This document shows positions 10,122 through 41,713 of a stretch of 64,000 nt of DNA, piece after piece; position 1 is the stretch's first letter; every line of letters starts with the position of its first letter. The notes under the pieces are model-generated. The model was not told the origin of the DNA. It did no database searches and worked only from the letters and a program-made list of their open reading frames with translations. The DNA comes from Escherichia coli (GTDB lineage: Bacteria; Pseudomonadota; Gammaproteobacteria; Enterobacterales; Enterobacteriaceae), in the NCBI RefSeq assembly GCF_016026235.1, contig NZ_CP065613.1; one strand, 5' to 3'. The translations under genes were made by a program, and so were the position numbers.

Positions 10122-11123
10122 TTACAGGCTATCGATTAACAATTTGCCTTTGCGGAACATCATCAGACGCAGGAACACCACCATCAGCGCAGTTATGACT
10201 GCCCCCAGCGCGATCCCCGCCATATAGACGCCCAGGTTAGTGACCAGCGGCCATGCCCAGATAGCGGATTCCGGGAACCATTGCACTGCGCCCAGCCAGA
10301 CAGCGGCGGTTGAGCCGACAATCGCGCCGACCATATACGACGGAATGGCGGTGATGGGGCTTTCCAGCGCAAACGGAATCGCACCCTCACTAATCCCCAT
10401 AAAGGCAAGGAACATCGCGGTCTTACCCTGCGGATAAAGCTGAGCATTGAACAGGCGTTTGCCGGTTAAACGACGGTCGATAATGGTCGCCAGACCCAGA
10501 CCAATCGGCGGAATAACGATAGCGATAGAACGTGCGGTGACCGGTAATACGTGGTCAGTGGTAAAGCTGAAGGCAACAAAACCTGCGGCTTTGTTGATCG
10601 GGCCACCAAGGTCGATTGCTGTCGCCGCGGCGATCCCCATTGCGTACATCAGCGCGCCCTTCTCACCTGCAGCAGTCAGTACGGTACGGATACCGCCGTT
10701 GATCCAGCCGCCAAACGGGGTGATGACGTAGTACATCGCCAGCATGACAAAAATGGCGGAAAGAATCGGTAGCAAAAATGTGGTTTTGAACGCTAACAGG
10801 AAATCCGGTAACTGGATTTTCTGGTTCATCCATTTCACAAGGTAACCGGCAACGATAGAAATAATCAGCGCACCAATGAAGGTGGACGGCACCGGCGAAG
10901 AGGTCGCCCATTGCATAGTGCTGGGATCGAAGTTCAGCAGTTGCGTCGGCTGGGTAGACATCAAGCCGCCGATAAAACCAGCCGGGAACGCCAGTTTGCC
11001 ACCGATAGAGTTCGCCACAAAAGCAGCAAACATCGGAATGGCAAAACCAAACAACACGCCGCCGAAGGACTGCGACAGCCAGGCAAATTTCAGTAAGGAG
11101 AGGTCGAAACCGGAGAATTTCCC
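10122..11123 (-). pseudogene. fryC: PTS fructose-like EIIC, C-terminal portion (codons 83-415) cut off by IS insertion
   Basis: Frame continues from the IS junction through GKFSGFDLSLLKFAW... into the 311-aa ORF; joins in frame with the N-terminal fragment at 12416-12673 once IS and one TSD copy are removed. Confidence 0.85.
11112..11123. repeat. 12-bp target-site duplication GGAGAATTTCCC (low-coordinate copy)
   Basis: Identical 12-mer directly flanks both ends of the IS at 11124-12415. Confidence 0.85.
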
Positions 11124-25986: not shown

Positions 25987-26062
25987 GGGTCGTTAGCTCA
26001 GTTGGTAGAGCAGTTGACTTTTAATCAATTGGTCGCAGGTTCGAATCCTGCACGACCCACCA
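25987..26062 (+). tRNA. lysV: tRNA-Lys (UUU)
   Basis: GGGTCGTTAGCTCAGTTGGTAGAGCAGTTGACTTTTAATCAATTGGTCGCAGGTTCGAATCCTGCACGACCCACCA. Confidence 0.9.
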
Positions 26063-26066
26063 ATGT

Positions 26067-26094
26067 AAAAAGGCGCCCTAAAGGCGCTTTTTTG
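26067..26094 (+). terminator. intrinsic terminator after lysV
   Basis: GGCGCC-CTAAA-GGCGC hairpin followed by TTTTTT. Confidence 0.75.
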
Positions 26095-26170
26095 CTATCT
26101 GCGATTTGCGAAATTGCCTGATGCGCTTCACTTAGCAGACTACTATTTCCGGCAATTCCTGTCTCCTCAC

Positions 26171-38871: not shown

Positions 38872-39381
38872 ATGGGTTTGTTCGATAAACTGAAATCTCT
38901 GGTTTCCGACGACAAGAAGGATACCGGAACTATTGAGATCATTGCTCCGCTCTCTGGCGAGATCGTCAATATCGAAGACGTGCCGGATGTCGTTTTTGCG
39001 GAAAAAATCGTTGGTGATGGTATTGCTATCAAACCAACGGGTAACAAAATGGTCGCGCCTGTAGACGGTACCATTGGTAAAATCTTTGAAACCAACCACG
39101 CATTCTCTATCGAATCTGATAGCGGCGTTGAACTGTTCGTCCACTTCGGTATCGACACCGTTGAACTGAAAGGCGAAGGCTTCAAGCGTATTGCTGAAGA
39201 AGGTCAGCGCGTGAAAGTTGGCGATACTGTCATTGAATTTGATCTGCCGCTGCTGGAAGAGAAAGCCAAGTCTACCCTGACTCCGGTTGTTATCTCCAAC
39301 ATGGACGAAATCAAAGAACTGATCAAACTGTCCGGTAGCGTAACCGTGGGTGAAACCCCGGTTATCCGCATCAAGAAGTAA
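38872..39381 (+). CDS. crr: glucose-specific PTS EIIA (Crr)
   Basis: 169 aa [32 protein letters not shown]... Confidence 0.97.
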
Positions 39382-39403
39382 TTCTTGCCGCAGTGAAAAA
39401 TGG

Positions 39404-39415
39404 CGCCCATCGGCG
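39404..39415. repeat. 12-bp target-site duplication CGCCCATCGGCG (left copy)
   Basis: Same 12-mer at 40842-40853; removal restores the palindrome AAAAATGGCGCC-CATC-GGCGCCATTTTT. Confidence 0.85.
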
Positions 39416-40841
39416 TAATGCCAGTCAGTTAAGCAACTGACTGGCTCTTTTTCGGGGCTGTGGGGTATTTCCAGGGCCTCTCCTTTACCACTCTCGGGAA
39501 GGCCCTTCCCCTTCTCGTCGGTAATTTCACAAGTTGTCCCATACTTGCAAGATCGCGCATCAGCTCCGGTATACGTCCCGGTGAAGCGCCCTGCAATGTC
39601 ATCAGCATTCTCATCACCATTCCGCATGATTCTGAGAAACTCAGTTGATTCGGCCAGTAACCTTTCAGATGTTCCGCCATTTTAATCATCTGATATCTCA
39701 CCAGATTATAAGCCAGTAAGACACCCCACAGCTCTTGCTCCACAAGCTCCGGCTTTTTACTTCTCAGCGTCAGCCTGCTCAGTTGCATCGTCTGTTTTAT
39801 CTCCCTGTATCCCAGTTCGATTTCCCAGCGATGACTGTACAGATCCGCCATTTCTCCTCTGGGGAAGCGCATGGCGTCCGTCATCGACGTCAGCAGATGG
39901 CAGACTTTTCCTTTGCGCGTCACGGTCAGCAGGCGGGCTGTCACTTCATTTCCCAGTCCCGGCCACTTTTTTCGTGCCTGCGGGCTGGTTTTCAGCTTCA
40001 CCAGATGATCGCCTTTACCCAGTTTTCTGAGCTCTTCATATTGCGCTCCCTTTCTGAGAGGTATCATCCAGTGGCGGTGTTCTCCCGCCAGGCTCCAGGC
40101 ATTTAACAGTCCCAGTGAGTAATAACCTTTATCCATTAACGTCAGAGTGTTATCGCCGGTTTGTTCTATAAGTTGCTCAGCAAGCTCATTTTCGCTGTTC
40201 TTCATCGTGCCGAAGGCTGCAGCCGTCAGCAGATGGCTGGTCAGTTCCATCTGGCAGACCATTTTGACCTGCGGGTAGAGCGCCGGGTTCCCGGCATGTG
40301 TCTGGCGGGGGAAGGCTGCATCGTTCTCTGGTGTATCCGGTGTGCGCCAGAACACACCATCGATGGCCAACAGGGTCAGGCCGCACCAGTGCGGATGCGG
40401 CGTGGCGTTATGCCAGAGCTGCGCTGTTTTCGTGAACACGCGGCGGACAGCCTCACTTCCCAGGCGCTGGCGGGCCTGAATAACGGCACTGGGGGCAACG
40501 AAGGGGCGATTGCCCGGCAGCATGATGTCCAGGCGATTCACAATCTGGTGAAGAGGTTCTTTACGCTCAAGCGCCATGCCAACAATACACCAGACCATCA
40601 TTTCGAGGGGAAGACGGCGCTTGCGTAGCGTTACAGTACCTGATTCGGCAAGGCAACGAGAGATGAGTTCGGGGTCGAGGTAATCCCCCAGAGAAGTCAG
40701 TGGGTTACGCAGAGAATCGTAACGGGATACCAGATCAAGAGCCTGTCCAATGTGCATAAAAAAATCCGGAAACAAGTGAGCGTTTCCGGATTCTTACACA
40801 GCCACTGGATCGGTCAACTGATCCTTAACTGATCGGCATTA
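39416..40841 (-). mobile_element. IS4, 1426 bp
   Basis: Ends TAATGCCAGTCAGTTAAG... and ...CTTAACTGATCGGCATTA; 442-aa IS4-type transposase; 12-bp TSD; length equals canonical IS4. Confidence 0.9.
39429..40757 (-). CDS. insG: IS4 transposase
   Basis: 442 aa from [19 protein letters not shown]...; DDE/YREK motifs ([15 protein letters not shown]). Confidence 0.9.
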
Positions 40842-40853
40842 CGCCCATCGGCG
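40842..40853. repeat. 12-bp target-site duplication CGCCCATCGGCG (right copy)
   Basis: Matches 39404-39415. Confidence 0.85.
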
Positions 40854-40861
40854 CCATTTTT

Positions 40862-41713
40862 TTATGCTTCCGCCAGCGGCGGCAAAATCAATTCATCGCT
40901 CTCATGCTGCTGGGTGTAGCGCATCACTTCCAGTACGCGCAACCCCGCGCGGTGCACCGCATCGGTTAACGCCTTCCCTTTCAGCAAGCCACTGATGAGC
41001 TGAGCACAAAACTGGTCGCCAGTCCCTTTCAGGTCGGTTTTTACCCGTGAATGGGAAATGACATTCACGCTGTCGGCAGTGACCACCACAACCTGCATCT
41101 CCTGATTTTCTTCATTACCGGAGGCGCTGGTAATCACCACCCATTTTAGTGTGTCTGAAAGCAGACTTTTTGCGGCAGCAATGGCACTGTCGAGATCGCG
41201 GCAATTTTTACCGGTCAGGATTTCCAGCTCAAAGATATTGGGGGTAATTCCCTGCGCCAGCGGCAGTAAATATTGTCGATACGCCTCGGGAAGGTCAGGT
41301 TTGACATAAATTCCGCTATCAATATCGCCAATCACCGGATCGACCATGATCAATAGATCAGGATGGTCTTTGCGTAGCGCAGTCAGCCACTCGGCAAGGA
41401 TTTTGATTTGCGATGCCGTTCCCATATAGCCCGTGGTTACAGCACGAAGTTGGCGCAGCGCATCACGCTCCTGAAGCGCACGCAAATAGCCGCTAAACCA
41501 TTCGTCCGGAATCGCACCACCGTAGAAAGTGTCATAATGCGGCGTATTGCTCAGCAATACCGTCGGCACGGCAAAGACATTCAGGCCGTTCTGTTTGATA
41601 GCAGGCACGGCAATGCTGTTGCCTACGCTGCCGTACACTACCTGCGACTGCACGGCGACGATATCCGCCTGCAGTGCCCTGCTCTTATCGTTAAACAACA
41701 ACAAACTACTCAT
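40862..41713 (-). CDS. pdxK: pyridoxal/pyridoxine/pyridoxamine kinase
   Basis: 283-aa ribokinase-superfamily ORF ([33 protein letters not shown]). Confidence 0.9.

Follow-up and report, generated by a model that had tools for sequence, protein, structure and literature searches.

The stretch of Escherichia coli DNA analysed here (64,000 nucleotides of contig NZ_CP065613.1, hereafter the window) carries an insertion sequence between the convergent genes crr and pdxK. This raises two questions, namely why the element came to lie there and where the transcripts of the two genes now end. Both genes are intact: crr (38872–39381, plus strand) specifies 169 amino acids and pdxK (40862–41713, minus strand) 283 amino acids, the reading frames being taken from the ORF list and the names from homologous E. 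coli regions. Since the stop codons lie at 39379–39381 (TAA) and 40862–40864, positions 39382–40861 are exactly the crr-pdxK intergenic region, which without the element would be a spacer of 42 bp. No known RNA family was found between 38500 and 41900, the sole Rfam match (E ≤ 1) being at chance level.

Identity of the inserted element

The element occupies 39416–40841, is 1426 bp in length and has its transposase gene on the minus strand. A repeat search located the two copies of its 12-bp target-site duplication, CGCCCATCGGCG, at 39404–39415 and 40842–40853; length and repeats agree with those of the original prediction. The 18-bp terminal inverted repeats, TAATGCCAGTCAGTTAAG on the transposase 3' side (39416–39433, no mismatches to the search pattern) and TAATGCCGATCAGTTAAG, as reverse complement, on the 5' side (40824–40841), agree at 16 of 18 positions and are the only two matches in the window, where none is expected by chance. 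Both begin TAATGCC, which fits the end signature of the IS4 subgroup (-AATR; PMC2266710). Compared with the common E. coli allele of IS4, 8 of the 1426 positions differ (99.4% identity). A copy of that allele lies at a yjhB/yjhC-type site (L007), which we take to be the resident site of K-12.

The InsG-type transposase ORF (39429–40757, minus strand) starts with ATG at 40757 and encodes 442 amino acids; the RefSeq annotation (PGAP) of E. coli relatives begins the protein at a TTG at 40775, giving 448 amino acids. The 442-residue product matches the IS4 family transposase model NF033592 of NCBIfam (E = 5.9e-91) over profile positions 3–332 of 332, and a 448-residue E. coli relative contains the Pfam domains Nterm_IS4 and DDE_Tnp_1. 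No record was found for the window's own transposase as an exact sequence, in either the 442- or the 448-residue form, and the survey of insertion sites described below used the common E. coli transposase alleles in its place. A candidate transposase promoter (TTGACC-16-AAGAAT, with TG upstream of the -10; 40790–40817, minus strand) matches 9 of 12 positions in a consensus scan, which returned this one site in the region against 2.0 expected; its -10 overlaps the 5' arm of the pdxK-facing hairpin considered below.

By its length, its ends, the NF033592 match and its closeness to the common allele, the element is to all appearances an ordinary, intact copy of IS4, as had been predicted. It has the 1426 bp, the 18-bp inverted repeats with two mismatches, the 12-bp duplication and the single DDE transposase ORF of 442 amino acids of classical IS4, from which it differs in location alone. 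At other IS4 copies the duplication measures 11–14 bp, the expectation for the subgroup being 10–13 bp. The classical insertions, in galT and in the pheST attenuator, were reportedly described by Klaer et al. in 1981, Habermann et al. in 1979 and Mayaux et al. in 1984, and the pheST case is said to have been an insertion into a terminator hairpin; our literature search found no paper on IS4 together with the pheS attenuator.

The terminator before and after insertion

Deletion of IS4 and one repeat gives the sequence AAAAATGGCGCCCATCGGCGCCATTTTT, in which the hairpin AAAAATGGCGCC-CATC-GGCGCCATTTTT separates the stop codons of the two genes. The perfect palindrome that excision had been predicted to restore is thus seen in the sequence, in its folds, and in the empty site that E. 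coli FDAARGOS_943, a relative with identical site flanks, carries at 100% identity. For the reconstructed site the folding energies are −24.8 kcal/mol (crr strand, z = −5.6) and −23.4 kcal/mol (pdxK strand, z = −4.9), and none of 200 shuffled sequences folded as well. It consists of a GC-rich stem-loop between an A-tract and a T-tract, and each strand reads as a hairpin followed by a U-tract. On these sequence features the site before insertion is a strong predicted two-way (bidirectional) intrinsic terminator. The window's crr-pdxK hairpin is absent from a curated list of dominant 3' ends that holds about 1000 ends per condition, and the K-12 hairpin sequence may differ (PMC7815308).

In the window the two halves of this terminator are separated by the element, the left half (A5, TGG and the left duplication copy) at 39396–39415 and the right half (duplication, CCA and T5) at 40842–40861. 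Each side retains four G:C pairs and one possible G.U pair, and the U-tract is absent. The left residual hairpin folds at −7.7 kcal/mol, and the residual stem energies on both sides are no better than those of shuffled sequence. The original prediction had placed IS4 on the dyad of a two-way terminator common to convergent crr and pdxK, with the hairpin destroyed on both sides, and this is what we find; its residual stem of 4 bp per gene becomes 4–5 bp here.

Target preference of IS4

The consensus over 50 clusters of IS4 sites reads A-tract, 3–4 nt, CNCC-N4-GGNG, 3–4 nt, T-tract. Position 1 of the duplication is C in 74% of the 50 sites, C prevails at positions 3 and 4 and G at 9, 10 and 12, and positions 16–21 are T, with a peak of 86% at position 18. 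A T-run at +13 to +22 was present at 33 of the 50 sites versus 4.7% of random positions, and the combination of such a run with a 4-bp mini-palindrome in the duplication at 15 of 50 versus 0.09%. Eleven of the 15 targets that could be fully reconstructed were terminator-like (6.5% of random 44-mers). The consensus agrees with the AAA-N20-TTT rule reportedly proposed for IS4 in 1984, and most IS4 sites are terminators. The crr-pdxK target with its arms, AAAAATGG[CGCCCATCGGCG]CCATTTTT, fits the same rule. It had been suggested that these elements favour hairpin-forming targets between convergent genes; the preference for terminator-like targets stands, but convergence does not, since convergent pairs account for only about 3 of the 11 IS4 sites whose neighbouring genes were called.

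A weight matrix trained without the crr-pdxK site was run over some 60,000 window positions, each at three duplication lengths, and ranked crr-pdxK second in the window (score 29.4; background mean −20.1, sd 9.1). The highest score fell on the lysV/xapR terminator at 26074, which terminates the valU-lysV tRNA operon and was joined to either IS4 end in none of 5426 genomes. Sequence score alone was rejected as a predictor of IS4 occupancy, and because the best-scoring site is never occupied, something beyond that score would seem to act. Selection against disruptive insertions would also add to the terminator enrichment, since the sample consists of insertions that have survived.

The window holds a second insertion of this geometry. 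An ISEc60-like member of the IS4 family lies at the dyad of the nupC terminator (19043–20358 with its duplications, plus strand; 19055–20346, or 1292 bp, without them), flanked by 12-bp duplications GGGGATAATTCC, and its excision restores AAAAAAGCCGGGGA-TAAT-TCCCCGGTTTTTTT. Identification of this 1292-bp element as IS186 or IS4 was rejected. Its duplications follow a sequence of the GGGGA..TCCCC type, and of 8 distinct ISEc60-like sites at which a 12-bp duplication could be identified, only about 3 are terminator hairpins; an IS4-like terminator preference was accordingly rejected for it as well. IS186-type elements target GC-rich pseudo-palindromes (GGGG-N6/7-CCCC), which the duplications of the nupC element resemble, and some terminator stems happen to fit. 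IS4 has an additional requirement, for A and T tracts on either side, and its sites are consequently terminators much more frequently than are targets of the GGGG/CCCC type. The insertion downstream of nupC therefore shows the same dyad geometry, as had been noted, but it is a different element, for which terminators make up a minority of the sites.

Recurrence at the crr-pdxK site

Of 5426 complete E. coli genomes, 5369 have the site uninterrupted, 15, such as VR50, carry IS4 in the window's orientation, and 39, such as FDAARGOS_1249 and SMS-3-5, carry it the other way round. Whichever way the element points, the same 12-bp duplication flanks it, except in strain GF130, where the duplication is an 11-bp variant. 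From one carrier to another, IS4 at the site varies in allele, by 7 to 17 or more positions. Sequence comparison thus shows at least four apparently independent hits on the crr-pdxK terminator, in both orientations. Our literature search found no paper joining IS4, crr and pdxK, or crr, pdxK and a terminator; the insertion nevertheless occurs, with annotation, in 54 complete E. coli genomes that are publicly available.

That these 54 genomes and the window all trace back, through descent or recombination, to one ancient insertion is very improbable. Most carriers do share the same 12-bp duplication and some are clonal relatives, such as three CUVET dog isolates, but orientation, duplication length and allele differences, together with the empty site in FDAARGOS_943, count against a common origin, and on the first three we rejected it. 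We give no more credence to the view that changes in crr or pdxK expression were positively selected and that this, not target preference, drives the recurrence: crr encodes EIIA-Glc, a central regulator for which changes in the 3' UTR could matter, and the vacancy at 26074 would suit such an account, yet the insertion occurs in only about 1% of genomes, is tolerated in both orientations, and insertion centred on the dyad is likewise seen at many unrelated terminators. A target preference might in turn rest on structure, with IS4 sensing an extruded DNA hairpin or cruciform and not the base sequence. Stem sequences vary among sites while complementarity is kept, and the loop always forms the centre of the duplication, both of which would follow from such sensing. 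We nonetheless consider it unlikely in view of the base preferences at individual positions (C at 1, 3 and 4; G at 9, 10 and 12; T at 16–21) and of sites such as L008, L031 and the commonest one, L007 (−0.8 kcal/mol), which have A/T arms and no usable stem. Sites with and without a stem are both explained if a transposase dimer reads symmetric sequence.

Probable termination within IS4

A terminator scan detected an intrinsic-terminator-like hairpin facing crr, GCCAGTCAGTT-AAGC-AACTGACTGGC followed by TCTTTTT (39420–39452, plus strand). With its 11-bp stem and UCUUUUU tract it lies 4 nt inside the IS4 end, and it folds at −17.5 kcal/mol. Inverted-repeat searching and folding revealed a further hairpin, facing pdxK (40758–40796, minus strand), whose stem (40764–40773 / 40782–40791) can be extended to 40796. 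It is followed by U7 (40764–40758), directly before the transposase ATG, and the first of these residues, 40764, can also close the stem. This hairpin folds at −14.9 to −18.5 kcal/mol and was not called by the simple terminator scan, probably because the stem runs into the U-tract. The two IS4-borne hairpins, at −17.5 and −18.5 kcal/mol, compare with −12.9 kcal/mol for the stem that they replace.

The ptsHI-crr operon is very highly expressed, and untranslated antisense RNA within a coding sequence is a typical substrate of Rho. In the Term-seq data for K-12 a 3' end designated 'antisense insG' was mapped at 4502127(+) in all three growth conditions, with three entries in a file that gives each condition a tab (PMC7815308), and the sequence around it is identical to window positions 39416–39463. 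A Rho termination region (Rho score 4.75) lies at 4502176, about 50 nt further into IS4 (PMC7815308). 3' ends are therefore formed in vivo at the crr-facing hairpin sequence in K-12; Term-seq reports 3' ends and not termination efficiency, and this end comes from K-12 and not from a carrier of IS4 between crr and pdxK. For the pdxK-facing hairpin no 3' end is listed in the same K-12 dataset, and we regard it as a predicted terminator on the basis of its sequence.

The original prediction held that termination is weakened, with read-through into IS4 and crr antisense RNA across insG. Carried to its end, this would mean that the insertion abolishes effective termination and that ptsHI-crr transcripts run through IS4 as antisense RNA that covers the transposase gene and enters pdxK. 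It is true that the original hairpin is split, that its residual stems of 4–5 bp lack a U-tract and that every terminator leaks somewhat; with transcription as strong as that of ptsHI-crr even a good one may do so. A canonical hairpin and U-tract stand 4 nt inside the crr-facing end, however, with a more favourable folding energy than the replaced stem, and the 3' end mapped in K-12 has a Rho termination region just downstream, in what would be antisense RNA. Such wholesale read-through is therefore improbable. The hairpins inside both IS4 ends, the K-12 3' end and the Rho region run counter to the predicted weakening, and long read-through across the transposase gene is unlikely given the crr-facing hairpin and its K-12 3' end. 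Probably the stop signals of IS4 take over from the split terminator, and the strong ptsHI-crr transcript would be terminated efficiently at the IS4 hairpin.

Proposed course of events

The observed identity of the element, the insertion geometry, the recurrence at the site and the target consensus are, overall, best explained by IS4 having jumped into the crr-pdxK terminator as a preferred target and having brought replacement terminators with it, and we are fairly confident of this reading. The near-perfect match of the terminator to the symmetric target consensus is the reason to place the transposition there. The transposase would have made staggered cuts 12 bp apart, symmetric about the hairpin dyad, by which the loop, with the four stem pairs next to it, would be duplicated and the hairpin split, so that neither crr nor pdxK would retain a functional old terminator. 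In its place each gene would meet an inward-facing, intrinsic-terminator-like hairpin just inside the nearer IS4 end. Transcripts of crr would then end about 37 nt inside IS4, near 39453, and those of pdxK after some 85 nt of IS4, immediately ahead of the transposase start codon. With such inward terminators the flanking 3' ends would be slightly longer, the transposase gene would be shielded from outside transcription and the insertion would be close to neutral.

Related elements and significance

A precedent for terminators within IS ends has been published for IS200, whose left-end rho-independent terminator protects against impinging transcription (PMC4513863). Its hairpin is placed only a few nucleotides from the end, like the predicted ones of IS4, and halts transcripts from flanking genes. 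IS200 belongs to another family, with a Y1 transposase, whereas IS4 appears to have a hairpin at both ends; the protective role in IS4 is suggested by sequence and by the K-12 3' end at one end only. Choice of gene-end palindromes is known from IS1397, ISKpn1 and several IS families, which target REP sequences (PMC1525189). Elements that home to terminators or REP sequences resemble IS4 in that their insertion does little harm, and differ from it in enzymes and recognition, IS4 being a DDE cut-and-paste element with a dyad-centred stagger of 11–14 bp. Group II introns, which insert after intrinsic terminators, and Tn7, which inserts downstream of glmS, belong with these elements; one of the IS4 sites (L009) is the glmS terminator region.

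The target specificity of IS4 has been known for decades, and the present finding is real but ordinary; its significance is modest and it leaves current understanding unchanged. For IS biology the 50 sites give a more extensive and more up-to-date sampling of the unusually strict symmetric target of IS4, for which the convergent-gene context is incidental. The replacement terminators come with the element, and one of the two has experimental backing. In annotation, IS4 between crr and pdxK should not be assumed to be disruptive for either gene or to be a source of long antisense RNA.

Perhaps IS4 is a self-insulating, terminator-homing element, which picks two-way terminators, cuts at the dyad and substitutes its own inward terminators; we put the chances of this at about even. 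If it is so, its insertions would be nearly neutral, and the terminators of crr-pdxK, tdk-adhE, opgH-yceK, eno, glmS and nupC, among others, would have been hit repeatedly in independent lineages of E. coli and Shigella. The 1984 consensus would then describe a functional strategy, and IS4 occupancy would be a natural marker of bidirectional terminators.

The IS4 copy and its site of insertion

The element between crr and pdxK is IS4 itself. It occupies 1426 bp (39416-40841) between the stop codons of crr (TAA, 39379-39381) and pdxK (40862-40864, minus strand), and is flanked on both sides by CGCCCATCGGCG, a 12-bp direct repeat without mismatches (39404-39415 and 40842-40853). Its 18-bp ends agree with each other at 16 of 18 positions, and the end pattern has only two matches in the 64 kb, with none expected by chance. 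Over its full profile length, the NCBIfam IS4 transposase model matches the 442 amino acid ORF (E = 5.9e-91); the DNA and the commonest IS4 allele of E. coli differ at 8 of the 1426 positions, and RefSeq labels homologous E. coli regions as crr, 'IS4-like element IS4 family transposase' and pdxK. The identity, length and 12-bp duplications put forward in the original prediction are thus borne out. The copy is apparently intact, and crr and pdxK are both intact beside it.

Removal of IS4 and one repeat in silico gives AAAAATGGCGCC-CATC-GGCGCCATTTTT. As RNA, either strand of this sequence forms a hairpin of 12-13 pairs; in context the energies are -24.8 and -23.4 kcal/mol, with z-scores of -5.6 and -4.9, equalled by no shuffle. 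By this modelling, the pre-insertion site is built like a bidirectional intrinsic terminator. The expected restoration of the palindrome corresponds to a real empty site: the 613-bp empty-site sequence is present at 100% identity in E. coli FDAARGOS_943, and 5369 of 5426 complete E. coli genomes have the site without interruption. After insertion each gene keeps, as was also foreseen, only a short residual stem of four G:C pairs and one possible G.U, followed by UAAUGCC with no U-tract; shuffled sequence folds just as well as these remnants. The original terminator is lost through the insertion.

Transcription at the occupied site

It had been predicted that this loss would probably weaken termination and make read-through into the IS likely. 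IS4, however, has terminator-like hairpins of its own. The hairpin GCCAGTCAGTT-AAGC-AACTGACTGGC followed by TCTTTTT (39420-39452, plus strand) starts four nucleotides inside the end facing crr, the 3' side of the transposase gene, and was detected by the terminator scan; its 11-pair stem has an energy of -17.5 kcal/mol versus -12.9 for the destroyed crr-pdxK stem. A 3' end at 4502127(+), of the class 'antisense insG', is recorded in the curated Term-seq list of E. coli K-12 MG1655 (Adams et al. 2021, PMC7815308, Supplementary file 1), with the printed flank CATCTTGGTTCTG-TAATGCCAGTCAGTTAAGCAACTGACTGGCTCTTTTT-CGGGG... This flank is the end of the IS4 copy resident in K-12, and window 39416-39463 matches it exactly. 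The entry appears three times in a file with one tab per growth condition. If the 61 nt given there comprise 50 upstream, the end itself and 10 downstream, the 3' end lies 8 nt past the stem, where the U-tract finishes. A Rho termination region is located 49 nt further in, at 4502176(+) (Rho score 4.75, significance 1.6e-15; PMC7815308, Supplementary file 2). It follows that transcripts entering IS4 from this side are halted in vivo, and that Rho adds a second layer. In the window, the new crr 3' end would lie near 39453, approximately 70 nt past the stop codon as compared with approximately 45 nt before insertion.

Facing pdxK, on the minus strand, is the hairpin AUCCGGAAAC-N8-GUUUCCGGAU; next come U7 and, immediately behind it, the transposase AUG at 40757. 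Its energy is -14.9 to -18.5 kcal/mol, according to the amount of A/U extension counted, and it was not called by the simple terminator scan, likely because the stem is able to extend into the U-tract. The K-12 Term-seq list (PMC7815308) has no 3' end at this hairpin, and its function in termination is putative. The left end of IS200 (PMC4513863) is a published precedent for the general arrangement of a terminator at an IS end. A promoter-like match, TTGACC-16-AAGAAT, overlaps the 5' arm of the hairpin; this is a consensus match only, one being found versus 2.0 expected. If this candidate promoter is real, one might speculate that the IS4 transcript starts within the hairpin and so avoids being terminated, whereas transcripts arriving from outside would be halted. 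Three GATC sites and two direct copies of GATCAGTT at 40808-40836, in the transposase-proximal end, overlap the candidate -35 element, a cluster reminiscent of the Dam-methylation control known from IS10 and IS50.

Termination of crr and pdxK has probably been moved by tens of nucleotides rather than abolished, and a long antisense RNA over the transposase gene is unlikely. Of the original proposal the loss of the terminator stands; the consequence is better described as relocation, probably not removal, of termination, and the crr-facing hairpin is backed by published 3'-end data.

Recurrence of the insertion

The crr-pdxK junction is occupied in the window orientation in 15 complete E. coli genomes, and in the opposite orientation in 39. 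Site details were taken from the sequences of four carriers (VR50, FDAARGOS_1249, SMS-3-5 and GF130). The 12-bp duplication is identical in both orientations (VR50; FDAARGOS_1249 and SMS-3-5), while that of GF130 is 11 bp, GCCCATCGGCG. The IS4 alleles vary among strains, with eight positions separating the window and VR50 copies. The two orientations, the 11-bp variant and the allele differences together make four the minimum number of independent insertions. IS4 has hit the crr-pdxK terminator recurrently, and about 1% of complete E. coli genomes carry it there; the case pairs a textbook element with a textbook type of target.

The identical occupied site is absent from the complete E. coli genome collection, the best match being 99.4%. 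The window flanks share approximately 98.7% identity with typical E. coli and are broken by several ISs; for the ISEc60 copies at the nupC and fryC-like sites, the match to assembly GCA_031665325.1 is 99.98%. Together with the empty-site match to FDAARGOS_943, this places the window in an IS-rich Escherichia or Shigella-type lineage, in which the IS4 insertion is probably fairly recent.

The element downstream of nupC

The IS after nupC (19055-20346), which had been cited as the same pattern, does lie at the dyad of a palindrome, AAAAAAGCCGGGGA-TAAT-TCCCCGGTTTTTTT, with a 12-bp duplication. It is nevertheless a different element, its 1292 bp and ISEc60 family annotation ruling out IS4. The duplications of ISEc60-like copies (GGGGATAATTCC, GGGAAATTCTCC, GGAGACTGCTCC, GGGGAATTCTCC, GGCGAGTTCCCC and others) form a GC-rich pseudo-palindrome, resembling the pattern of IS186. 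A 12-bp duplication can be identified at eight distinct sites, of which only three (nupC, deoD and dnaJ) are terminator hairpins.

A second ISEc60-like copy (11124-12415), with 12-bp duplications GGAGAATTTCCC at 11112-11123 and 12416-12427, interrupts a PTS EIIC (fryC-like) gene adjoining glk, a site that is not a terminator. Both copies carry the same A-to-T change (window 19851 and 11619), AGA to TGA, which truncates the 396 amino acid transposase at about residue 238; at the same two chromosomal sites in GCA_031665325.1 the copies are intact and otherwise identical. Because the same nonsense change is present in two separate copies, gene conversion between them is suggested. At another site in GCA_031665325.1 (L119) the duplication GGCGAGTTCCCC is followed by GCGCCAGCGGGGATAAACC, which resembles the E. 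coli type I-E CRISPR repeat, so that this ISEc60 copy appears to lie inside such a repeat.

Target preference of IS4

Twenty IS4 copies were collected by exact look-ups of two common transposase alleles, and 87 further loci by scanning metagenomes for a 27-mer of the IS end; their flanks, 63 of them unique, fell into 50 site clusters. Counting outward from the IS4 end, 74% of sites have C at position 1; C also predominates at positions 3-4 and G at positions 9, 10 and 12, while positions 16-21 are T, with a peak of 86% at position 18. The resulting consensus, A-tract, N3-4, CNCC-N4-GGNG, N3-4, T-tract, agrees with the AAA-N20-TTT reportedly described by Mayaux et al. in 1984. A T-run at +13 to +22 occurs in 33/50 sites versus 4.7% of random window positions, a 4-bp mini-palindrome inside the duplication in 21/50 (2.7%), and both together in 15/50 (0.09%). 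Among 15 fully reconstructed sites, 11 are terminator-like on at least one strand (random, 6.5%) and four on both.

Recognisable terminators carrying IS4 include those of tdk-adhE, mukB-ldtD, opgH-yceK, aroA-ycaL, eno, glmS and a phage tail operon, several of them occupied in both orientations in different strains. One metagenome contig (L085) has IS4 in the nupC terminator (flank GGGGATAATTCCCCGGTTTTTT), the hairpin that holds the ISEc60-like element in the window, so that one terminator is used by two different ISs. In one genome the flanks of two IS4 copies are swapped (L011 and L012 versus L006 and L024), joining mukB to aroA and ldtD to ycaL, which fits an inversion in which IS4 copies in the terminators of mukB and aroA recombined. 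The suggested preference for convergent genes did not hold: only about three of some 11 IS4 sites with gene calls (crr/pdxK, tdk/adhE and eno) are convergent, the remainder lying downstream of a gene whose neighbour has the same direction. The convergent context is incidental, and what counts is that the terminator has an A-tract as well as a T-tract.

With crr-pdxK and nupC left out, the remaining 48 site clusters served to train a weight matrix, which was run over approximately 60,000 positions of the IS-free window at three duplication lengths each. The crr-pdxK site ranked second (score 29.4; background mean -20.1, sd 9.1), behind the terminator after the valU-valX-valY-lysV tRNA cluster at 26074 (26062-26100), AAAAAGGCGCCCTAAAGGCGCTTTTTT. 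A search in either orientation found IS4 at the latter in 0 of 5426 E. coli genomes; that the top-scoring site is empty indicates that selection or some local factor matters besides sequence. IS4 copies beside a cold-shock protein gene have approximately 29 nt of flank similar to this lysV terminator.

Because only insertions that survived were sampled, survivorship may account for some of the terminator enrichment; it cannot explain the exact centring on the dyad or the position-specific bases. As to what is recognised, genuine sites with A/T arms but essentially without a stem exist: L007 (-0.8 kcal/mol), the commonest site, which we take to be the K-12 resident one, L008 and L031. The last, on a metagenome contig corresponding to about window 19790-19830, places IS4 within the coding sequence of the ISEc60 transposase at AAAAATGCA[CAACATGAAGGG]CATTTTTAT. 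Because of such stemless sites, we favour a transposase that reads symmetric sequence over recognition of an extruded hairpin. The old IS4 consensus amounts, in practice, to the targeting of symmetric intrinsic terminators.
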